From IMG/VR virus record IMGVR_UViG_3300009370_000001: a stretch of DNA of 64,000 bases. One strand, 5' to 3'. The position numbers and the translations under genes were made by a program. Numbering within the stretch: position 1 is the first letter of the stretch; each line of letters begins with the position of its first letter. This DNA comes from a virus (Duplodnaviria; Caudoviricetes). This document shows, one piece after another, positions 18,232-58,979 of the stretch. The notes under the pieces are model-generated. The model worked only from the letters and a program-made list of their open reading frames with translations. It had not been told where the DNA came from and ran no database searches.

Positions 18232-19659
18232 ATGTCCTTCAAGAAGTTTGGACAAAATGATATCCTTATAAATACAATGATGGCAGAGCCTCATTGTGAA
18301 TTCTTCATTTATGATGGGGATATCTTTTATAACAATACACCGAGCAAAGCCGGCACTTCTACTGCAGGCGGCGGCGGTTCTGCTGTGTCTGAAGTTCGTA
18401 TGGTATCCCCCGGCAGTATTAGCTTGTATGAGTACAATATTGATCGACCAGATACAAGCGGGGATGATAAGATTATCGGTGAGGCCGGCCCTCACTCTAG
18501 AGGAGGCGGCTCTTATACCCAGGCTGTCGCCGATCTTGGACCAGAACCCCAGACATTTGTTCAATATACTGGACGCATCTATCCTTGGATTTCCAAAGAC
18601 AGCGCCGGCGCAAGCTGGAAAACAGTTAATGCTACCGGTTATGCTACCGAATATATGTATGGTGATGTTCTAACCGGAACCTATCCTCTCTCCGCCTCAA
18701 TAGTGCGCAAATATATAGTCGGCGGTTCTACAGGTCCCACTTTTGGCGCGGTGGGGGAGACGTCTGGCTCCGGCGCCGACGAGGTATCCATCGAGGGCAA
18801 GTTAACAGCATTAGGAGATGGTCCTTCTGGTTCTCTCGATAGGCACTTCTATAGTTTAAAAGGTCGTTTAAATTTTTATGGCATTCGAAGTGCGCACTAT
18901 AAAGTTTCTGCTTCTCTAGGATCGGACTCGTGGAACAAAAATGAACAGACCTTAAATTTAATCGCCATTCCATCAATAGCCTTTGGCTCTCAAATCAAGC
19001 CCGGAACGGTCTCTTTAAAATGGTATTATGACGGCGGCCTGATTGGAGAACTTCAAGACCGTCGACAAAACGGAGAATTAATTCAAGTTTCCGCTTCCAC
19101 AGGGTATACAGCTAATAATAATAAAGTTGCAGGAGTTATTATGTACGATGAGGGATACATTGTCTTAACTGGCTCGTGGGCTTTAAATGCGGCTGCTATC
19201 CCATTACAGACGGCCGTGAATTCCTCTCCCACATGGCTTTATTTTGGTGTCGGTGCGAATGATGGACTTAATCAAAGTAACACTGGGACTAATTTTGCAA
19301 AAGCTTCTTTTAGCTTATCTTTCAAGGGGCAGACGAAAACACAAGTAATGACACTGTTTACGCATGCTAAGCGTGGAGAAGCCAATTTCTCTAATAACCC
19401 CACATATTTAAAGTATGGACAAGACAAACTACAATATACCTCTTCACAAGTTTATGAAGAAAATCCTGATCAATTCCTTGCCAACACCGTCAGTTCGAGT
19501 TATAATGATTATGAGGCTCCGTTTAAACGGAGTGTGTATATTTCCAAAGTGGCAGTCTATGATGAGAATAAGAATATGATCGGCGTTGCAACGTTAGCAA
19601 ATCCAGTTCTCAAAGAAGAAGATCGAGACTACTCCTTTAAATTAAAATTGGATATTTAA
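18232..19659 (+). CDS. Putative baseplate wedge / tail-collar-type protein, paralog of 17148
   Basis: QIKPGTVSL, GVIMYDEGYIVL, NFSNNPTY and YISKVAVYDENKNMIGVATLANPVLK align with 17148. Confidence 0.55.
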   Translation: MSFKKFGQNDILINTMMAEPHCEFFIYDGDIFYNNTPSKAGTSTAGGGGSAVSEVRMVSPGSISLYEYNIDRPDTSGDDKIIGEAGPHSRGGGSYTQAVADLGPEPQTFVQYTGRIYPWISKDSAGASWKTVNATGYATEYMYGDVLTGTYPLSASIVRKYIVGGSTGPTFGAVGETSGSGADEVSIEGKLTALGDGPSGSLDRHFYSLKGRLNFYGIRSAHYKVSASLGSDSWNKNEQTLNLIAIPSIAFGSQIKPGTVSLKWYYDGGLIGELQDRRQNGELIQVSASTGYTANNNKVAGVIMYDEGYIVLTGSWALNAAAIPLQTAVNSSPTWLYFGVGANDGLNQSNTGTNFAKASFSLSFKGQTKTQVMTLFTHAKRGEANFSNNPTYLKYGQDKLQYTSSQVYEENPDQFLANTVSSSYNDYEAPFKRSVYISKVAVYDENKNMIGVATLANPVLKEEDRDYSFKLKLDI

Positions 19660-20234
19660 TGATACTTGGTGTGGATATTTCCACCAGCATCACAGGTTTT
19701 GCGATTGTTACCGATAACGTGCTGGTATATTATGACTCTATTGATTTGCGAAAATACAAAGGCTTTTTCGCTAAGACAATCGCTATAAAAGAAAAGATAC
19801 TGGACATTTTCGAAATGTACCAGCTTAATAACGATGACAAGATGACTGGAGATTCTGAGTTTCCTATTCAGCACATCTATATTGAGCAATCTCTCCATAT
19901 GTTTATGGGAGGCCGCTCATCAGCTAAAACACTTTCAACACTCACGCGCTTTAATGGCGTCGTAGCGTGGCTTCTCTTCGAACTATTTGAAATCGAACCA
20001 CAATTTATCGGCGCTTCGTCTGCTCGCAAGCAAGTCGGCATTAGAGTTCCGAGAGGTGAGAAAGCAAAACAAGTTGTTTTGAAATATTTACTTGACAACG
20101 AACCCACTTTTAAGATACAATATACAAGTAAGGGCAATCCCAAACCTGAATCTTATGATCGGGCGGATGCAATTATAATCGCGAGAGCGGGAGATATAAT
20201 TGAGCGAGAAAAAGAAACACAAGATTCTGTGTGA
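19659..20234 (+). CDS. ruvC: RuvC-like Holliday junction resolvase
   Basis: MILGVDISTSITGFA (first catalytic Asp), IYIEQ (Glu) and YDRADAII (D..D) give the RNase H-fold RuvC acidic tetrad; 191 aa. Confidence 0.75.
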   Translation: MILGVDISTSITGFAIVTDNVLVYYDSIDLRKYKGFFAKTIAIKEKILDIFEMYQLNNDDKMTGDSEFPIQHIYIEQSLHMFMGGRSSAKTLSTLTRFNGVVAWLLFELFEIEPQFIGASSARKQVGIRVPRGEKAKQVVLKYLLDNEPTFKIQYTSKGNPKPESYDRADAIIIARAGDIIEREKETQDSV

Positions 20235-21135
20235 TGTATTAGGATATTCACATACAAATGGTTCCGAAACACTTTTCAAATGCCCTGCGTGCGATCACCA
20301 CAAGCTTAAACTCTCTGTTAACATCCGCAAGAATGTTTTTAAGTGTTGGGTATGTGATTATCGTGGTCGTAATATTCGCCGGCTGGTTCGTCGTTTTGGA
20401 ACGTTTGTTCAACTACAGCGATGGGAAGAACTCACGGGTCGCCACGATCTCGATAGATTTGCTGAGCTATTTGATGATAGCGTTCGTGTGGACCCTCAGC
20501 CCACTTTGGATCTTCCAGAAGAATTTGTAAGTCTCGCCAGCAATGTGCCGGCAACTGGTGTATACGCTTATAAATACTTGTACTCACGCGGTATAACAAA
20601 GGCCGAGATTCTTAAGTGGAAGATAGGTTATTGTTTCAGCGGCGAGTATCGCAACCGCATTATCATCCCGTCCTTTAACGATGACGGCAATGTCAGTTAT
20701 TTCATCGCGAGATCCTATAACGGAGATTCATACAAGTATAAGAATCCCAGAGCATCTAAAGACATTGTGTTCAATGAGCTATATATTGATTGGAACGATG
20801 ACTTGACAATCGTGGAAGGGGTGTTTGATGCCATTACTGCCGGAAACAGCGTACCTATTTTGGGGTCCACTCTGCGATCTGACTCCGATCTCATCCGCAA
20901 AATCGTGTACAACGATACACCAGTCTTCGTTGCACTCGACCCCGATGCGCGAGAAAAAGAGAACAGGATTATTGAGACGCTTCTTAAATACGATGTCGAA
21001 CTTTACAAGATTGACGTGAGTGGTTACGAGGACGTGGGCTCCATGCCGAAAGAGGTTTTCCGAGAGCGAAAACAAAAAGCAGAATTCATAGATAGAGACG
21101 ACTATTTACTCATGAATTTACTCTCGGCAGTATAA
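20200..21135 (+). CDS. DNA primase (DnaG-type, Zn-finger plus TOPRIM)
   Basis: CPAC...H...CWVC zinc finger, NRIIIP, YFIAR, YKNP, IVEGVFDA, and LDPDA (DxD). Confidence 0.85.
   Translation: MSEKKKHKILCDVLGYSHTNGSETLFKCPACDHHKLKLSVNIRKNVFKCWVCDYRGRNIRRLVRRFGTFVQLQRWEELTGRHDLDRFAELFDDSVRVDPQPTLDLPEEFVSLASNVPATGVYAYKYLYSRGITKAEILKWKIGYCFSGEYRNRIIIPSFNDDGNVSYFIARSYNGDSYKYKNPRASKDIVFNELYIDWNDDLTIVEGVFDAITAGNSVPILGSTLRSDSDLIRKIVYNDTPVFVALDPDAREKENRIIETLLKYDVELYKIDVSGYEDVGSMPKEVFRERKQKAEFIDRDDYLLMNLLSAV
21085..21135 (+). repeat. Direct repeat copy 1: last 17 codons of primase (FIDRDDYLLMNLLSAV*)
   Basis: 44 of 51 nt identical to 22514-22564. Confidence 0.85.
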
Positions 21136-21140
21136 ACCGC

Positions 21141-21169
21141 TTGACATTTACAGATAGATCGCTTATAAT
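21141..21169 (+). promoter_or_regulatory. Consensus sigma70 promoter TTGACA-N17-TATAAT
   Basis: TTGACA at 21141-21146 and TATAAT at 21164-21169; the ATG at 21176 sits at the expected +1. Confidence 0.85.
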
Positions 21170-21175
21170 AAGAAT

Positions 21176-21445
21176 ATGAAAGTAACAGCACTAAGGTGTA
21201 ACAATTGCAACACCCTAATTTATTCTCGTACTCGTCACGATATGAGAGGCTGCCGGTGTTGGAAGAACGATTACGATAACATCGGAATTGCAATTGACGG
21301 CGGGTTCGACTATTGCAAGGTTCACGCCAGTCCAAAATCAGACTATGATTTTATTGCCGAGTATGATCTTGGAGAGGTTGACAGGAAAACGCTTTATCAA
21401 GATTGGAACACTCGAACCGATAATTATGGGATGATTACAGAATGA
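21176..21445 (+). CDS. Small Zn-ribbon-type phage protein
   Basis: CNNC...SRTRHDMRGCRC...IAIDGGFDY pattern (CxxC...H...CxC...DGG.DY) seen in small phage proteins; no Shine-Dalgarno, probably leaderless. Confidence 0.7.
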   Translation: MKVTALRCNNCNTLIYSRTRHDMRGCRCWKNDYDNIGIAIDGGFDYCKVHASPKSDYDFIAEYDLGEVDRKTLYQDWNTRTDNYGMITE

Positions 21446-22020
21446 ACGAAGAAAACGACTTTAGACTTGTGAGAGCTTTCCCGCTCCTTTATGCAGATAG
21501 GGGCGGCTCTAAGCAATCAACGCTCATGTGTTGGGGCTTCTCGTGCGGCGATGGCTGGTTTGATCTTATCTGGGATCTCTCAGAGAAGCTTGAGCCGATC
21601 ATCAAGAAGTTTGTTGATGAAAATCCAAACCTTGAATGTTCGAATTGCGGCTGCAAGAAAGACAGACACTATGCTTGCAAGACCCGCAATCCCGGCAGGT
21701 GCCTATCGGTTCACGTCGATCCGGATTCAGATGAGGAGCCCCCTGGCAACTATTATGCTTGCTTCTGTGATAGTTATGTGTCAAGTCATCCAAGGGCTGT
21801 TCAGGTGAAAGAGAAGTTCGGATCGCTTAGGTTCTATATGACATCAGAAAACGACGAGATCCGCAGCCTAATCGGCGAAGCCGAAGCAAAATCGTGTGAA
21901 ACCTGCGAGGAATGCGGAGATCCCGGCAAAGAAAGAGACACAAGTTGGATCCGAACGCTCTGCGACGGATGCTATGAGAATTGGGAGCAGATCCGAGCAG
22001 CGAGATGGAGCAAAGAATGA
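21442..22020 (+). CDS. Conserved-type hypothetical protein with an inserted Cys/His module
   Basis: CGDGWFDLI...QVKEKFGSLRFY...TCEECG...W..TLC pattern; ATGA overlap with the previous gene. Confidence 0.7.
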   Translation: MNEENDFRLVRAFPLLYADRGGSKQSTLMCWGFSCGDGWFDLIWDLSEKLEPIIKKFVDENPNLECSNCGCKKDRHYACKTRNPGRCLSVHVDPDSDEEPPGNYYACFCDSYVSSHPRAVQVKEKFGSLRFYMTSENDEIRSLIGEAEAKSCETCEECGDPGKERDTSWIRTLCDGCYENWEQIRAARWSKE

Positions 22021-22262
22021 AACCAACACTTGAGTCTGGTGATATCATAATCCGTCGCGCAAGTAATGGTTGGATTGTATTTGTAGAATCAGAGCACGAG
22101 CCAGATCACTTTATCACTCTCCTTTATGAAATCCCCGACACTGAATTCGGGGAACAAGAGTGCTTTATGAACCTTTTAGGAGCAGAGTTCCCAGAGCAAT
22201 TTCAGTCAAAACATCGTGGCGGTATTCAAATGGAGTTGCGAACCAAGGGACGAGAGCATTAA
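22017..22262 (+). CDS. Hypothetical protein (81 aa)
   Basis: ATGA overlap with the previous stop (MKPTLESGDIIIRRASNGWIV...); preferred over the ORF-track start at 21981. Confidence 0.6.
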   Translation: MKPTLESGDIIIRRASNGWIVFVESEHEPDHFITLLYEIPDTEFGEQECFMNLLGAEFPEQFQSKHRGGIQMELRTKGREH

Positions 22263-22289
22263 GAAAAATATTGAAGTGATTGAAGAATA

Positions 22290-22511
22290 ATGAGCGAGAA
22301 CACCAAAAAAGAAGATTGGCAGAGACTAGAAATCACAGATGTGATCGACAATCCTGACGGAACTTCAACATTAGTTTTTGAACTCGAAGACGAGTTCAGA
22401 GAGTGGTTCAAGAAATCATTCGGATTAAAAAGGTGGAGCGACAAAAGGTTCGAGAAGGTGTTTCTTGAAGCAATTAGAGGCTATATAGAGAGGGAGACCG
22501 GAAAAGATTAA
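22290..22511 (+). CDS. Hypothetical protein (73 aa)
   Basis: Ends two bases before the second primase-end repeat; last gene of the inserted cassette. Confidence 0.55.
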   Translation: MSENTKKEDWQRLEITDVIDNPDGTSTLVFELEDEFREWFKKSFGLKRWSDKRFEKVFLEAIRGYIERETGKD

Positions 22512-22513
22512 TC

Positions 22514-22564
22514 TTTATCGATAGAGAAGACTATTTATTGATGAATTTACTCTCGGCAGTGTAG
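22514..22564 (+). repeat. Direct repeat copy 2: orphan primase 3' end (FIDREDYLLMNLLSAV*) containing an ACTATTTAT motif at 22530-22538
   Basis: Seven mismatches against copy 1: six synonymous (including TAA/TAG) and one D to E. Confidence 0.85.
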
Positions 22565-22574
22565 GAGAGCCCCG

Positions 22575-23633
22575 ATGAAAGTAACCAAATCAAAACTAAA
22601 GCAGATTATTAATGAAGAACTGGGACAAGAACTCCAAGAACTTTATATCCCTTTTATTGGCGGGAAACTTCCCGAGAAAGAATATGCAATCCGTAGGAAG
22701 CAGTTGGACGCCATTGGCGATATGGCAAATGACCTAAGCGCGGAAGAGGAAGAACAATTCTTAAGGTACGCGAGCCGGTTGGTAGCACCCAAGGAGGAAG
22801 GGGAAGGCTTTGTCCTGCTGAGCGACAGGATAGAAGCTGGTCTTCTAGGACAATTGTTTCAACAACTGAGGCGCCTTCTGTATGACCGTCACCCTAAACA
22901 TAAAGCACAGAGTCTTATGAACCGTTTTGATCAAAACGCAGATCGGTTGTCCAAAGAGTTGGGCGGACTAGCCCAAGAAATAGCCGATCAGAAAGCTGAT
23001 GCTGCGGCAAGAGAAAAGGCCGCCCGGGAAGAAAGGTATGAGAGGGAACAACGAGAAGAAGAAGAAGAAAAAGCAAGAGCGCGAAATAGGAGAGACGCAG
23101 AAGAAGCCCGTTCGGCGCAGGAGTACCTGAGTATGTCCGATGCAGAACGTACTCGACTGCGCAAGCGGTCAGGATCGTCGTCCCACCGCGTTAACCCCGG
23201 CTTTGCAGGCTCAGGAAACATGGGCTATGGAGAATCACTCGATAGGAGAATCCCAATGAAAGTAACCAAAGCACAACTTCAAGAGATCATCCTTGAAGAG
23301 CTTACAATCGCTTTAGACGAGCTTGGCGCTGGCAAAGGCGCCGGCATGAGCCTGCGCGCTGCCCAACTCGGTGGAACCGGACACGGCAAGCGCGATGAAG
23401 ACGAAGAATACGTCGATCCCGAAGTCGATCCTTATGAGAAAGCGCTGGAAGCTCCGTTGGCCGAAGAAGAGGATGACGAGTGGATTCAAGACGCAGAGAA
23501 AGATATTAAAAAGCGCGGCACCGAGGGTGTCTGCACTGGGGATAAATTTGGTGGTCCCACATGCAAGCCTGGAACGAAACGATACAACTTAGCAAAGACG
23601 TTCCGGAAGATGGCGAAAGACCGCAAAAAATAA
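22575..23633 (+). CDS. Putative internal head/cargo protein with two MKVTK..L..II.EEL leaders
   Basis: AGGAG RBS; leader MKVTKSKLKQIINEEL, a charged coiled coil, then a second leader MKVTKAQLQEIILEEL at residue 228. Confidence 0.7.
   Translation: MKVTKSKLKQIINEELGQELQELYIPFIGGKLPEKEYAIRRKQLDAIGDMANDLSAEEEEQFLRYASRLVAPKEEGEGFVLLSDRIEAGLLGQLFQQLRRLLYDRHPKHKAQSLMNRFDQNADRLSKELGGLAQEIADQKADAAAREKAAREERYEREQREEEEEKARARNRRDAEEARSAQEYLSMSDAERTRLRKRSGSSSHRVNPGFAGSGNMGYGESLDRRIPMKVTKAQLQEIILEELTIALDELGAGKGAGMSLRAAQLGGTGHGKRDEDEEYVDPEVDPYEKALEAPLAEEEDDEWIQDAEKDIKKRGTEGVCTGDKFGGPTCKPGTKRYNLAKTFRKMAKDRKK
23256..23633 (+). CDS. Probable nested in-frame product (125 aa) from an internal start
   Basis: Own AGGAG RBS at 23244-23248; 23243-23270 matches the upstream start region 22562-22589 at 25 of 28 nt. 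Confidence 0.55.
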   Translation: MKVTKAQLQEIILEELTIALDELGAGKGAGMSLRAAQLGGTGHGKRDEDEEYVDPEVDPYEKALEAPLAEEEDDEWIQDAEKDIKKRGTEGVCTGDKFGGPTCKPGTKRYNLAKTFRKMAKDRKK

Positions 23634-23637
23634 AAGC

Positions 23638-23666
23638 TTGACTCTTGCTTGACAATGAGTTATACT
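23638..23666 (+). promoter_or_regulatory. Sigma70-type promoter TTGACT-N17-TATACT
   Basis: -35 at 23638-23643 and -10 at 23661-23666; GGAGG RBS before the GTG at 23692. Confidence 0.75.
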
Positions 23667-26600: not shown

Positions 26601-26799
26601 GTCGGACTTGTTTATCCTCGATGAGCCGGGCACCGCATTGGACGAAGAAAATATGGAGGGTTTTATTAGGATCTTGGAACTAATTAAGGTATATTTTAAG
26701 AACGTTCTCTTGATCTCGCATTTAGACTCTCTCAAAGATTGCGTCGACATGCAGATTGTAATAGAAAAGAAAAAAGGCTACGCAAAGGTAAACCAATAA
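23692..26799 (+). CDS. Fused SbcD/Mre11 nuclease and SbcC/Rad50 ABC ATPase (T4 gp47+gp46-like)
   Basis: Metallophosphoesterase motifs HISDTH, HCGDIAH, ILGNHD, LGDIH, YAGS; then Walker A GKNFSGKSS, coiled coil, hook-like PCGDSYPSC, signature ASGAE, Walker B LFILDE, and LISH. Confidence 0.9.
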   Translation: MKFAHISDTHIKNLKYHYEYRVIFEQLYETLREQKVDYIIHCGDIAHTKTQISPEFVEMCSDFFRSLAEIAPTYIILGNHDGNLKNSSRQDALTPIVDALNLPTLHLLKDSGETHLNDDFCLNVLSVFDRDNWMKPTNTDKINIALYHGSISNCKTDTNWTMSFGEDDISIFDDFDFSMLGDIHRRQFLDHDGRVWYAGSTVQQNHGETNDKGILIWDIKSKDEWDIEPIVFKNPKPFFTIPLTLKGRMPRNLQVPTGARLRLVSNNNLPLNTMRRAMDIAKHRFKPESISFLNRAAGERGNVEDLTDGIKTENLRDIKVQEELIDEFLSDYQTDATTLERVFELNSKYNKIIEDREEISRNVNWRIKSFKWDNLFNYGKDNSIDFENLNGIIGVFGKNFSGKSSIIDAALYTLFNTTSKNERKNLNVINQHQESCEGVLEIEIGHKVYNIKRTSEKYTKRLKGVETLEAKTDLNFEVYDPVTDETTSLNGTTRNQTDANIRKHFGSMDDFMVSSLASQHGALGFIDEGSTRRKEIIAKFLDLELFDQKFKMAKDDSVEAKALLRKYEDRDYNTEVQALETSLEDLTVQAETNRTTCEDYRKELKLLNEGARRLDEKINSIPGKLIDITKVMTEQKDKQVLSKLLEEKITSQTALALVKQQKVAISESLLELIDHATLTADKAEIDTLDHSIMNLREEIEKIGKKEKLLKSIPCGDSYPSCRFIKDAYIDVANKPGIEADLHAAAMRLETLSPDDTAEKLEEYRLTQELIVELKAEVAALQLECERNKNTKATTDQELITLTTKVAEYKQNKKVIDGLEKVIKERQGYQTKIETKKEKIEICDNETLEIVRQVGSYEEKIESLKAQSKEYQDLQNSYAAYDLLMQCMHPNGIAYDIIKKKIPVINQEIAKVLANIVEFEVFFETSGNKLDIFIKHPKHDERPIEMASGAEKTMAAMAIRLALLSVSSLPKSDLFILDEPGTALDEENMEGFIRILELIKVYFKNVLLISHLDSLKDCVDMQIVIEKKKGYAKVNQ

Positions 26800-55387: not shown

Positions 55388-58318
55388 ATGTCAGTAAAAA
55401 ACTTTAAGTTTGTCTCTCCTGGTGTTTTTATCAATGAGATCGACAACTCTTTCATTCCCAAGTCAGCAGAAGAAATTGGACCTGTTGTTATTGGTCGTGC
55501 CTCTAGGGGCCCCGCTATGCAACCTGTTAAGGTCCGCTCTTACTCTGAATTTGTAGAAGTGTTCGGAGATACAGTACCCGGAGGTACCGGCGGCGATGTT
55601 TATCGCGATGGCAACTACCAATCCGCAATGTACGGTACTTATGCCGCTAAAGCTTTTTTGCGTGCCAATGTGGCGCCCCTGACATATGTGCGCCTCTTAG
55701 GTGAGCAACACGCTAATAACACAGGCGCCTCTACCGCGCTCGCTGGTTGGAAAACAACTGAGAGCCCCGGGGCCACTTATGCTGCTAACGGAGGCGCCTA
55801 CGGACTCTGGATCTGGCCGTCTGGCTCTGGTACCATAGTAGGTGGGACAGCCGGACTACAAGGCGTCCTGGCTGCTATTTGGTACGTAGATGATAATGCT
55901 TCAATTGCTTTAAGTGGGACGCTAATGCGCTCCACAGCTACGACTGCTTCTATTGGGCAGGTCATAGCTAACGATACTGCCACCGCCAATTCTTTTACGG
56001 TGGAGATTCGAAACAACGACTTAGCCAGCGAAAAAATTCGCTTTAATCTTGATGATAGTTCCGATCTCTTCATTCGCAAGCGTTTTAACACCAATCCTCA
56101 ACTAGTGGCGGCTGCAGGAACATTTGCACCGGCCTCGTCGAAGAAAAACTATTGGCTTGGTGAGAGTTTCGAACAAGAAATTCGCGATGGTATCCATTCA
56201 AATCCCGCTCTCTTTACAGTGACGAGCGGAAGTTCTCTTACCTCTGCTGCTCTCCATGGATGTATCCTTCCTATAGCATTGAATAGCGCTAACACAACAG
56301 GGCCTCACAATGTTCAGGGGGTTAGTGCAGACTCGGCCCTTGGTAAAGCCGGTTGGTTCATTGGTCAAGACCTTGGAACTCCCGCTTCCTTCCGTCCGGA
56401 TCAGATGCAACAGCTTTTCCGTCTTAAAGACCGCGGACACGGCGAGTGGCTCCAAAAGAACGTTAAGGTTTCTATTGAGAACATTCGTAAGTCCACCTCT
56501 ACGGTAAGTGACTACGGAACATTCAGCGTGGTTCTTCGCGCTCTGTCAGATACCGATAGTAATGTTCAAGTGATGGAACGGTTTGATAACTGTACGCTCG
56601 ATCCCACTTCCCCCAATTTCCTTTCTCGCAAGATTGGAGATCAGTATACATCTTGGGATACCACTAGTCGTCGATTGAAGACTTATGGAGAATATGCAAA
56701 CCAATCTAAGTTCGTGTATGTGGAAATGAATGCGACTGTAGAAGCCGGCGGCACTGACGCCGAATTGCTTCCCTTCGGATATTATGGGCCGCCCCGGTTT
56801 ACGAGCGGAATCTCTGTTAGTTCTTCAGTCGACTTGACTGACCAGAATTTGATGATCTTTAATACCCCAACACTTCTGAGTGGTTCAACACTCTTGTCCA
56901 GCGTTGGTCTCGCCGGACAAGCGCTGGCCCTGACTGCGAGTCTCGGATTCCCCGTTGCACAGACTCGCTTGTCGGCATCTGATGGCGGCTTAGCAGATAA
57001 TACTGATGCCTACTTTGGATTCCAAAGCACGCGTTCGTCGACTAGCACCCGCTGGGATCCGAGCGTGGCCTCAATGCATCGTTTCTGGACTGCAACATCT
57101 GTTGACGATCCAGTAAACAGCACCGCGGTTGCCGGTATTGAATCTTATGCGTATATTTTCACTCTTGATAATGTGCTCTCTTGCAGTTCCGGCGGATACT
57201 ATTATGAATCCGGATCTCGCGCCTCCTCTAAGTCTGTAACGAGTGCCTCCTACGGCGATATCTTAGACCTCGGATACAGCCAATTCACCGCTCCTATTTG
57301 GGGTGGCTTCGATGGCTGGGATATCACAAAGCCCGATCCTCTATATAACACTGGAATGACAGACATTAGCAGTGTAGATGATCGCAATAGCTATGCTTAT
57401 AACACGATTAAGCGCGCTGTTGATACAGTAGCCGACCCTGAGTCTCTTAATATGAATCTCTTGGCCGCACCCGGCGTAACGGTTCCGGGCCTGACTACAC
57501 ATATGGTAAACGTTTGTGAAGAGCGCGCAGATGCGATGTCTCTCATTGACCTGCCTAATGTATACCTCCCTGCTTCTGAAGGATCTTATTCTTCTCGCAG
57601 CACAAAGGCTTCCCGTATCGCCACAACCCCCCAGCAAGCAGCCACAACCCTTCGGAATCGTCGAATTGACTCCAGTTATGGCGCAACTTTCTATCCGTGG
57701 GTCCAGACAGTAGACGACCGAACAGGCCGCATGCTGTGGATTCCGCCTTCCGTCGCAATGATGGGAGTGCTGGCATCTTCACAAGCTTCGTCTGAATTGT
57801 GGTTCGCTCCTGCGGGCTTCAATCGCGGCGGTCTTAGTGATGGCGCAGCAGGTATTCCAGTTACTTCTGTGACTGAGAGACTGACATCTAAAGAGCGCGA
57901 CACTCTTTACGATGCGCGCATTAATCCGATTGCCTCGTTCCCCTCTAGCGGAATTGTGGTGTTTGGGCAGAAGACGCTTCAAGAGCGCCAAAGTGCCTTG
58001 GACCGTATTAATGTACGCCGACTCGTTATCTACTTGAAGAAGCAGATTTCTATTCTCTCCACTCAAATTCTGTTTGAGCAAAACGTACAAGCGACGTGGG
58101 CGAGATTTAAGGGACTTGTCGAGCCCTTCCTGCAGAACGCAGTCGTGAGATTGGGACTTACCGAATATAGACTGGTCCTGGACGAATCTACTACAACCCC
58201 AGATTTGATTGACCAGAATATTATGTATGCCAAGATTATGGTTAAACCTGCACGCTCTATTGAGTTCATTGCGATTGATTTTGTGATTGCCTCGACGGGA
58301 GCATCTTTTGATGACTAA
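55388..58318 (+). CDS. gp18: Contractile tail sheath protein (T4 gp18-like)
   Basis: SPGVFINEID N-terminus; WIPPS, WFAPAGFNRG, INPI, FGQKTLQ, and ALDRINVRRL. Confidence 0.93.
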   Translation: MSVKNFKFVSPGVFINEIDNSFIPKSAEEIGPVVIGRASRGPAMQPVKVRSYSEFVEVFGDTVPGGTGGDVYRDGNYQSAMYGTYAAKAFLRANVAPLTYVRLLGEQHANNTGASTALAGWKTTESPGATYAANGGAYGLWIWPSGSGTIVGGTAGLQGVLAAIWYVDDNASIALSGTLMRSTATTASIGQVIANDTATANSFTVEIRNNDLASEKIRFNLDDSSDLFIRKRFNTNPQLVAAAGTFAPASSKKNYWLGESFEQEIRDGIHSNPALFTVTSGSSLTSAALHGCILPIALNSANTTGPHNVQGVSADSALGKAGWFIGQDLGTPASFRPDQMQQLFRLKDRGHGEWLQKNVKVSIENIRKSTSTVSDYGTFSVVLRALSDTDSNVQVMERFDNCTLDPTSPNFLSRKIGDQYTSWDTTSRRLKTYGEYANQSKFVYVEMNATVEAGGTDAELLPFGYYGPPRFTSGISVSSSVDLTDQNLMIFNTPTLLSGSTLLSSVGLAGQALALTASLGFPVAQTRLSASDGGLADNTDAYFGFQSTRSSTSTRWDPSVASMHRFWTATSVDDPVNSTAVAGIESYAYIFTLDNVLSCSSGGYYYESGSRASSKSVTSASYGDILDLGYSQFTAPIWGGFDGWDITKPDPLYNTGMTDISSVDDRNSYAYNTIKRAVDTVADPESLNMNLLAAPGVTVPGLTTHMVNVCEERADAMSLIDLPNVYLPASEGSYSSRSTKASRIATTPQQAATTLRNRRIDSSYGATFYPWVQTVDDRTGRMLWIPPSVAMMGVLASSQASSELWFAPAGFNRGGLSDGAAGIPVTSVTERLTSKERDTLYDARINPIASFPSSGIVVFGQKTLQERQSALDRINVRRLVIYLKKQISILSTQILFEQNVQATWARFKGLVEPFLQNAVVRLGLTEYRLVLDESTTTPDLIDQNIMYAKIMVKPARSIEFIAIDFVIASTGASFDD

Positions 58319-58382: not shown

Positions 58383-58979
58383 ATGCCATTCTGGTCAACC
58401 AATCATTCTAACAACCCCGCGCTAAACGATCCCAAAAGGTCATTTAGATTTGTAGTGCGCTTTAACGGACTTAGCGATAACACGCTTTGGTACGCAAAAA
58501 CCGCTACAAAGCCTTCTTTTCAAATCGCTTCGACAGAGCACAAGTATTTGAATCACACCTTTTATTATCCTGGCGCTGTTACGTGGCAGGATGTATCGGT
58601 AACATTGGTCGACCCAGTCGATCCTGACATGGCAGCATCCTTGACAGACATCGTTCAAGCCGGCGGATATAAAATTCCTACCCCGGGCGACAACAGCACG
58701 ATGACAAAGGCTAGCGCTTCGACGGCGCTGGGTGTTGTGACGGTCGAGCAGATCGATTCTAACGGAGTCGCCCTCGAAACCTGGACGCTTAACAATGCTT
58801 TCATTACTGAAATTAAGTACGGTGACTTAGAATACGGAAAAGATGATTTAACGGTATTGACGGTTACGATGAAGTACGATTGGGCAACTCTGGAAGCCCG
58901 AGGAAAGAGCATTCGCGATAAGACGACAGCCACTGGCGAGAAGAATAAGTTCTGGTCTGTCGGCGGCGGCAACAGCTAA
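58383..58979 (+). CDS. gp19: Tail tube protein (T4 gp19-like)
   Basis: PKRSFRF, WQDVSVTLVDP, and ETWTLNNAFITEIKYGDLEY; follows the sheath. Confidence 0.88.
   Translation: MPFWSTNHSNNPALNDPKRSFRFVVRFNGLSDNTLWYAKTATKPSFQIASTEHKYLNHTFYYPGAVTWQDVSVTLVDPVDPDMAASLTDIVQAGGYKIPTPGDNSTMTKASASTALGVVTVEQIDSNGVALETWTLNNAFITEIKYGDLEYGKDDLTVLTVTMKYDWATLEARGKSIRDKTTATGEKNKFWSVGGGNS

Follow-up and report, generated by a model that had tools for sequence, protein, structure and literature searches.

A duplicated primase gene end around an accessory-gene insertion in an uncultured marine myovirus, with a candidate late promoter in its codons

Results

The Primase Gene End Is Present Twice

In the window, a 64,000-nucleotide (nt) stretch of phage DNA that corresponds to positions 84192–148191 of the 203,204-bp IMG/VR record IMGVR_UViG_3300009370_000001 and is numbered here from its own first letter, the last 17 codons of a DNA primase gene, stop codon included, are present twice, at 21085–21135 and at 22514–22564, with 44 of 51 nt matching and the two copies 1429 nt apart. 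Between these copies, or tails, lie a sigma70-type promoter and four small genes, c1–c4, which we refer to together as the cassette. The arrangement is probably a recombination scar, the form of which was dictated by a promoter overlapping coding sequence. This reading is carried by the repeat itself, by empty sites in relatives, by constraint at the nucleotide level on a late-promoter-like box, ACTATTTA, within the tail, by the association of this box with genes that share an N-terminal leader, and by the mosaic structure of the locus; from these we infer promoter activity, the timing of expression, and the order of events. The elements of the repeat are as follows.

20200–21135, plus strand: DnaG/gp61-type primase gene, 311 amino acids (phrog_47 DNA primase, 1.1e-43; Pfam DNAG_N)
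21085–21135, plus strand: tail copy 1, the last primase codons plus TAA, coding, closing the primase frame (repeat comparison)
21101–21108, plus strand: ACTATTTA inside copy 1, in the D-Y-L codons (motif scan)
22514–22564, plus strand: tail copy 2, displaced non-coding primase end; putative promoter and 5′ leader of gene 22575
22530–22537, plus strand: ACTATTTA, late-promoter-like box in copy 2, 37 nt upstream of the ATG at 22575

The seven differences between the tails are TTC/TTT, ATA/ATC, GAC/GAA (D to E), CTC/TTG (two bases), GTA/GTG, and TAA/TAG; in the primase frame, four codon changes (five bases) are synonymous, one replaces Asp with Glu, and the last turns TAA into TAG. A model that read only the letters of the window (the original prediction) had described a primase tail occurring twice, 1429 bp apart, with six of its seven differences silent, and both statements are borne out, the first by direct comparison and by self-BLAST and the second by the single residue that changes in the primase frame. 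Self-BLAST of the whole 203,204-bp genome returns the tail repeat at E = 1.7e-9 with no copies beyond these two, which share a 20-nt perfect core as direct repeats. The same search revealed no other gene-end repeat in the genome, the remaining short repeats being leader tags and early-promoter modules. Copy 2 starts 2 nt past the stop codon of c4 and out of frame with c4, and is therefore non-coding; gene 22575 begins eleven nt beyond it.

Short-read metagenome assemblies may collapse or join at repeats, and one related contig, L109 (European Nucleotide Archive (ENA) scaffold_1104, 52,765 bp), breaks 19 nt past the primase stop, which suggests an assembly-graph branch at a variable junction in that sample. 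Both points would speak for an assembly artefact or a chimeric contig. The repeat, however, is just 51 nt long with 7 mismatches, and both of its junctions recur at 100% identity elsewhere: in a 203,698-bp ENA scaffold, among Logan contigs (SRR8062352 and others), and in Joint Genome Institute (JGI) contigs. In all, at least seven samples and three pipelines yielded them in separate assemblies. Because the junctions are identical in independent assemblies, the arrangement is no assembly artefact; the probability that we would still assign to one is negligible, and one of the outcomes that the original prediction had named as fatal to it is ruled out.

A Late-Promoter-like Box Is Fixed within the Primase Codons

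The box ACTATTTA occurs 17 times in the window (2.4 expected), with 16 of these occurrences on the plus strand, and genome-wide it is found 28 times on the plus strand and twice on the minus strand, most often 20–60 nt ahead of a start codon. It stands upstream of the tail sheath gene at 55388 and of the tube gene at 58383. Across 852 kb of loci from relatives, the plus and minus strands hold 152 and 3 occurrences, respectively, and open reading frame (ORF) starts peak 17–20 nt downstream. The box is thus short, conserved, and strand-specific, lacks a −35 element, and lies ahead of virion genes.

Within the primase tail, the box is held at the level of codons. Among 48 distinct primase tails, namely those sharing Y-L-L in register, the codons that make up the box are AAC in 34 of 34 cases, GAC in 13 of 14, TAT in 48 of 48, and TTA in 44 of 48, the genome usage of these codons being 39%, 34%, 77%, and 26%, respectively; the remaining Leu codons of the tail vary freely, with up to six codons used. 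The box also goes with the type of gene that follows. A gene carrying the N-terminal leader MKVTK..L..II.EE (a leader-tagged gene) comes next in 39 of 48 distinct loci with the box as compared with 0 of 22 without it (kinship among loci ignored). At least one of the apparent exceptions, L003, is a miss of the regular expression used, and in most of the others inspected the following gene has a GTG or TTG start. Compared across loci, these patterns argue strongly that the D/N-Y-L codons serve at the same time as a late-type promoter for whatever gene follows. The proposal in the original prediction that the displaced tail may have been kept for the late promoter of 22575, contained in its D-Y-L codons, is well supported by the strand bias, the synonymous fixation, and the association with leader-tagged genes; copy 2 would accordingly persist as a putative promoter and 5′ leader for 22575.

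The Site Is Empty in the Closest Relatives

The IMG/VR record has direct terminal repeats (a 119-bp terminal repeat by self-BLAST), and every long ORF is on the plus strand. Tail sheath and tail tube genes are encoded within the window, and the phage is therefore a myovirus. Its nearest cultured primase relatives are those of Flavobacterium phage immuto (38%), a Microcystis phage (33%), and SPO1-like phages (27%), and none of 50,697 phage records matched the region in a DNA search. Since the cultured primase relatives are distant and no deposited phage matches the DNA, we describe the phage as a large uncultured marine myovirus and avoid a strict T4-like label; it belongs to a widespread, uncultured clade of marine myoviruses of about 200 kb.

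A primase-protein scan of viral contigs gave 107 related loci; 80 of these were retrieved and compared. The genes c1–c4 are absent at this site in all 80, including L003–L006 and L047 (87–94% primase identity), so that the empty sites for which the original prediction had proposed a search are present in the closest relatives. In three of these, L003 (94% primase identity), L006, and L047, a ribosome-binding site and then an MKVTK..L..II.EE gene come directly after the tail, the gene starting within 10–11 nt of it; in L004 and L005, 71 nt containing an early promoter separate the tail from the gene for an Mre11/Rad50 fusion (sbcCD). Leader-tagged genes homologous to 22575 come after the primase tail in relatives. 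A single mismatch separates copy 2 from the authentic L006 tail, with the ribosome-binding site and the start of the leader-tagged gene staying in register; copy 2 with its downstream junction therefore represents the displaced authentic primase end. The empty sites in the closest relatives likewise make the cassette a gain relative to an order in which the leader-tagged gene follows primase directly, and on this comparative footing the cassette is an insertion behind primase. The features to the right of copy 2 are as follows.

22575–23633, plus strand: leader-tagged (MKVTK..L..II.EE) gene, 352 amino acids, with an in-frame second ribosome-binding site and start at 23256
23638–23666, plus strand: sigma70-type promoter of the Mre11-Rad50 fusion gene, conserved in L003–L006 and L047
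23692–26799, plus strand: Mre11/Rad50 (SbcCD-like) fusion gene, conserved right anchor of the variable interval (Pfam Metallophos, SMC_N)

A Probable Recombination Scar Shaped by Overlapping Functions

The arrangement can be rationalized as follows. As a rule in this clade, small late genes with a shared N-terminal leader begin within about 10 nt of the primase end, and the sole late-promoter-like box for them (ACTATTTA) sits in primase codons −11 to −9 (D/N-Y-L). In the window lineage, a 1.37-kb early unit, comprising a sigma70 promoter and four accessory genes, would have become joined between primase and the late genes. A viable recombinant would need an intact primase C terminus and also the promoter, 5′ leader, and ribosome-binding site of the late genes; because both the primase end and the late-gene control region are required, the last 17 codons would be kept twice, with copy 1 closing the primase frame and the non-coding copy 2 presumably driving 22575. 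The right joint (c4 stop, 2 nt, primase codon −17) appears to be a single illegitimate joining event, and the left side would have been set, or later reset, by ordinary homologous exchange, which may have imported a diverged primase end along with the promoter, c1, and the 5′ half of c2 from an unsampled relative. Homologous recombination would since have reshuffled both sides of the joint. No site-specific recombinase would be involved. Integrase-free insertion of cassettes in phage hyperplastic regions is already known, and the point of interest here is the overlap of coding sequence and promoter that would force the duplication.

Copy 1 looks locally foreign, which fits an imported replacement end. 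Over the last 536 nt, the window primase differs from that of L003 at 25 positions, eight of which fall inside 40 nt and lie within 21081–21111, and the codon just upstream of the repeat is Glu (GAA) where the five closest relatives have Arg or Lys (AGG, AGA, AAA), a change of two or three bases. The tail codons TTC and CTC are likewise peculiar to copy 1 when set beside the 48 distinct alleles. The alternative in which no end was imported, the resident 51-nt tail having been doubled in place and copy 1 having then diverged silently, possibly under selection against homology with copy 2 that would make the insert more stable, is unlikely, even though it has several points in its favor: the changes in copy 1 are mostly synonymous, its final 24 nt are those of L003, and its codons TTC and CTC are used by none of the 48 natural tail alleles, so no known donor allele fits. 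It is at odds with the two or three base changes needed to convert the upstream Arg/Lys codon to Glu in a gene that is elsewhere about 3% from L003, and with the distribution of divergence in the cassette, where everything from the promoter to the 5′ half of c2 differs by 10–28% from the second cassette-carrying lineage, represented by L083, and the 3′ half of the cassette is about 99% identical, as would fit an imported tract.

In every contig that reaches past the primase stop, the cassette, c1 being next, is linked to this exact primase protein (14 contigs with the protein read, from 8 places among the matches listed). The second lineage (L083 and several other contigs) also has the cassette and copy 2, on a backbone whose sbcCD gene differs from that of the window by about 22% at the nucleotide level. 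The window is 72–90% identical to L083 over 21164–21663, about 94% identical over 21664–21763, and 98–100% identical over 21764–22562 except for one block of 89% (22064–22163); the high-identity part spans the 3′ half of c2, c3, c4, and copy 2. A further locus, L098, is a recombinant of the window and L083 types with its crossover in c2, and from the end of the tail onward, the array of leader-tagged genes differs between cassette carriers. The left flank of the L083 type is a 67-amino-acid gene plus a 300-nt spacer, without a primase tail. It matches, at 99.9% identity, an accessory region lying behind a 645-amino-acid gene on another contig, where primase is absent for 9.5 kb, and it can be traced via the 67-amino-acid and TK genes into an accessory region (HSP70, FKBP, TK, and the 645-amino-acid gene) that likewise has no primase. 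The c4/copy 2 joint is identical in every carrier. An exact-pattern scan for this right joint found it solely in the L083 contig, and the pattern of the left joint gave no matches.

Several points weigh against the scar as reconstructed here. The case for ACTATTTA as a promoter consists of position, strand bias, and conservation, and L004 and L005 retain the box without a leader-tagged gene next, which fits recent loss of such a gene but is no proof of it. The interval over which the differences in copy 1 cluster was picked after the data had been viewed. No match to a donor of the copy 1 end was found in the viral or metagenome contig collections, and divergence in place is thus possible. Lastly, the L083-type contigs end short of any primase, and the original left joint is therefore not visible. 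The claim in the original prediction that both copies appear to descend from functional but different primase alleles thus stands for copy 2, which is authentic and 1 nt from L006, and in part for copy 1, which is locally foreign but for which no donor was found. Likewise, its view that the cassette arrived with a replacement gene end is confirmed as to the insertion and the empty site; import of the end fits the cluster in copy 1, with the donor lacking.

No Support for a Recurrent Landing Pad

A recurrently mobile cassette would make different use of the same repeat: recombination between the tails would excise a 1429-bp circle, Campbell-style integration would place it into related primase tails, and the gene end would be a recurrent landing pad. 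The tails are indeed direct repeats with a 20-nt perfect core, circles are documented for ORFans flanked by early-promoter and stem-loop (PeSL) sequences in T4-type phages (PMC2839356), the interval from primase to sbcCD is hypervariable, and the cassette is common to two backbones. Against this, a second tail, full or partial, is found in none of the 80 relatives, and the interval, which runs from −5 to 5005 nt after the primase stop, varies through leader-tagged late genes downstream of an undivided tail. The cassette is kept in all contigs with this primase allele that reach past the primase stop, the hybrid-tail product expected from deletion is absent from the metagenome and viral contig collections searched, as is any alternative joint, the identical c4/copy 2 joint indicates one origin, and the crossovers seen lie in c2 and at the tail end and are not clean gains or losses of the cassette. 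We regard such a cassette as distinctly unlikely. With no second tail among the relatives, a single-origin joint, no integrase, and no other gene-end repeat, the att-like landing pad of the original prediction is not supported, nor is the gene end as a recurrent entry point.

L003 was considered as a product of repeat-mediated deletion and was ruled out, as it has the authentic upstream Arg codon and its tail is no hybrid of copies 1 and 2.

A more speculative version, which we judge quite improbable, takes the tail, late box, and leader start together as a portable homology block, in effect a PeSL for late genes, at which the early cassettes upstream and the capsid-cargo genes downstream would be swapped again and again in this abundant clade and from which the 1429-bp unit could be excised as a circle. 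If this were true, coding sequence, promoter, and recombination joint would be the same 50 nt.

Relation to Known Systems

Morons of the Hendrix type are accessory transcription units inserted between conserved phage genes. The cassette resembles them in being a short unit with its own predicted promoter that is missing at that exact place in close relatives and has no recombinase. It differs in having four genes and no terminator, in splitting a gene from a promoter in that gene’s own 3′ end, and in the duplicated gene tail.

Insertion into the 3′ end of a gene with provision of a replacement end is familiar from e14 and phage 21 in icd and from att sites in tRNA genes. As in those elements, a diverged and mostly synonymous replacement end restores the frame, and the displaced original end stays on the far side. 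In contrast to them, no integrase was detected here, there is no evidence of site-specific recombination or of recurrent use of the site, and the displaced end appears to have been kept for function, as a putative promoter and 5′ leader, and is no dead relic.

The leader-tagged genes recall the internal-protein locus of T4, a set of hypervariable small late genes in a phage whose late promoter is TATAAATA. In both cases, hypervariable small late genes share just an N-terminal leader, and a single −10-like late box stands without a −35 element. The box here is ACTATTTA and not TATAAATA, and the nearest cultured relatives of the primase are those of immuto and the Microcystis phage, not T4.

A known precedent is PeSL shuffling in T4-type phages (Arbiol et al. 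2010, PMC2839356; Comeau et al. 2014, PMC4122927), in which ORFan cassettes are gained and lost within hyperplastic regions without an integrase, and composites of an early promoter and a stem-loop terminator lie on both sides of the ORFans (Arbiol 2010; PMC2839356). Both systems are integrase-free, with short repeated regulatory sequences that bracket the cassette and with sigma70-type early promoters. The bracketing repeats here, however, are coding gene ends with a late-type box and not an early promoter with a stem-loop; there is one early promoter, on the left side, no stem-loop or terminator, and a single repeat pair in the genome. Without stem-loops, a terminator, or recurrent repeats, the element is no PeSL as defined by Arbiol et al. 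(PMC2839356).

The locus does not reveal a new mobility mechanism or a new kind of mobile element. It would instead be a natural example of how a promoter overlapping the coding sequence of the preceding gene constrains genome mosaicism: since an insertion at such an overlap would survive solely with duplication of the gene end, the footprint gives both the direction of the event (gain, not loss) and the regulatory nucleotides. It also lends comparative support to ACTATTTA as the candidate late box of a widespread uncultured marine myovirus clade, linked to leader-tagged genes that are probably capsid-loaded.

Promoter and Genes of the Cassette

The original prediction had placed a perfect sigma70 promoter and four small genes between the tails and had called the cassette integrase-free. 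Both descriptions hold: the promoter matches consensus at 12 of 12 positions, four ORFs follow it, and searches with Pfam, PHROGs, and PADLOC identified no integrase or nuclease family in c1–c4.

21141–21169, plus strand: consensus sigma70-type early promoter, TTGACA, 17 nt, TATAAT (12/12 matches)
21176–21445, plus strand: c1, 89 amino acids, zinc-ribbon DUF7695 (Pfam PF24749, 2.5e-10), 94% identical in L083
21442–22020, plus strand: c2, 192 amino acids, Cys-rich, no assigned function (AlphaFold2 pLDDT 92.7)
22017–22262, plus strand: c3, 81 amino acids, no assigned function; homologues in other accessory regions
22290–22511, plus strand: c4, 73 amino acids, no assigned function; stop 2 nt ahead of copy 2

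The cassette promoter, which is one of 28 sigma70-type sites on the plus strand of the genome (as compared with one on the minus strand), predicts early expression via the host RNA polymerase. No terminator-like site was found on the plus strand between 21135 and 22575 (fold z-scores −0.3 and −0.7), and neither stem-loops nor Rfam RNA families were found at the cassette junctions. As the cassette has no terminator, early transcripts probably continue through copy 2 into 22575.

Function searches with c1–c4 gave DUF7695 for c1 as the sole annotation. The c2 family has at least 1728 metagenomic homologues, uncharacterised and mostly from marine viruses, and the AlphaFold2 model of c2 has no solved-structure match in the PDB by Foldseek or VIA-align (best Z 4.0); the model may represent a fold that is widespread in marine phages but as yet uncharacterised. 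In other phages, homologues of c2, c3, and c4 are found in different gene orders and accessory contexts. Matches to the exact c4 protein are spread over 32 blocks of the contig collection, and the 23 contigs read come from 10 places among the matches listed.

An insertion that adjoins a conserved gene with a local substitution tract could also be the work of a free-standing homing endonuclease, in which case a cassette protein would cut cassette-free tails and the silent cluster in copy 1 would be a self-immunity or co-conversion tract. The Cys-rich, zinc-binding-like character of c1 and c2 would suit such a role, but GIY-YIG, HNH, LAGLIDADG, and other nuclease families were undetected in c1–c4 by the searches above, c2 has thousands of homologues in many contexts, and the duplicated tail would be left unexplained. 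We consider this explanation highly unlikely.

The sequence ATTTACAGATAGA, in the promoter spacer at 21146–21158, resembles ATTTATAGATAGA of L003 and L006 and was considered as a third tail-start fragment; it is not above chance when compared with relatives’ sequence and was rejected.

Neighboring Intervals and Leaders

Two observations concern the left flank of the L083 type. A 112-nt piece that forms the 3′ ORF end of L104 (375–486) is found at 98% identity as non-coding DNA upstream of the 67-amino-acid gene in L083 (5–116) and L102 (4894–5005), and could thus be what is left of another gene end at a cassette joint of related phages. The spacer of about 300 nt between the 67-amino-acid gene and the c1 promoter (L083, 316–600) contains no plus-strand ORF of at least 60 amino acids and no Rfam match.

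In the distant relatives L052, L054, L068, and L079 (49–55% primase identity), the primase gene directly adjoins or overlaps that for Mre11-Rad50 (−5 to 12 nt), and ACTATTTA is missing from the tails; this is probably the oldest arrangement.

The primase gene is itself preceded by a sigma70-type promoter (11/12) at 20092–20121, which sits inside the 3′ end of the RuvC-like resolvase gene (19659–20234) and is thus a second promoter embedded in the preceding gene. The interval between the RuvC-like gene and primase is likewise variable: an FKBP-type gene is present there in many relatives (L010, L013, L015–L019, L028, L033, L035–L040, and others), and in the window the two genes overlap.

In gene 22575, the ribosome-binding site, start, and leader (22562–22621) are repeated in frame at 23243–23302, with 77% identity over 60 nt. 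The 352-amino-acid ORF may thus comprise two fused leader-tagged genes or have an internal start at 23256; relatives have two to three separate genes. At least six genes begin with DNA-level repeats of a second type of leader, MKLLLENWR..F..E; these are located at genome positions 17810, 18253, 18980, 20050, and 21530, outside the window, and at position 26798 of the window.

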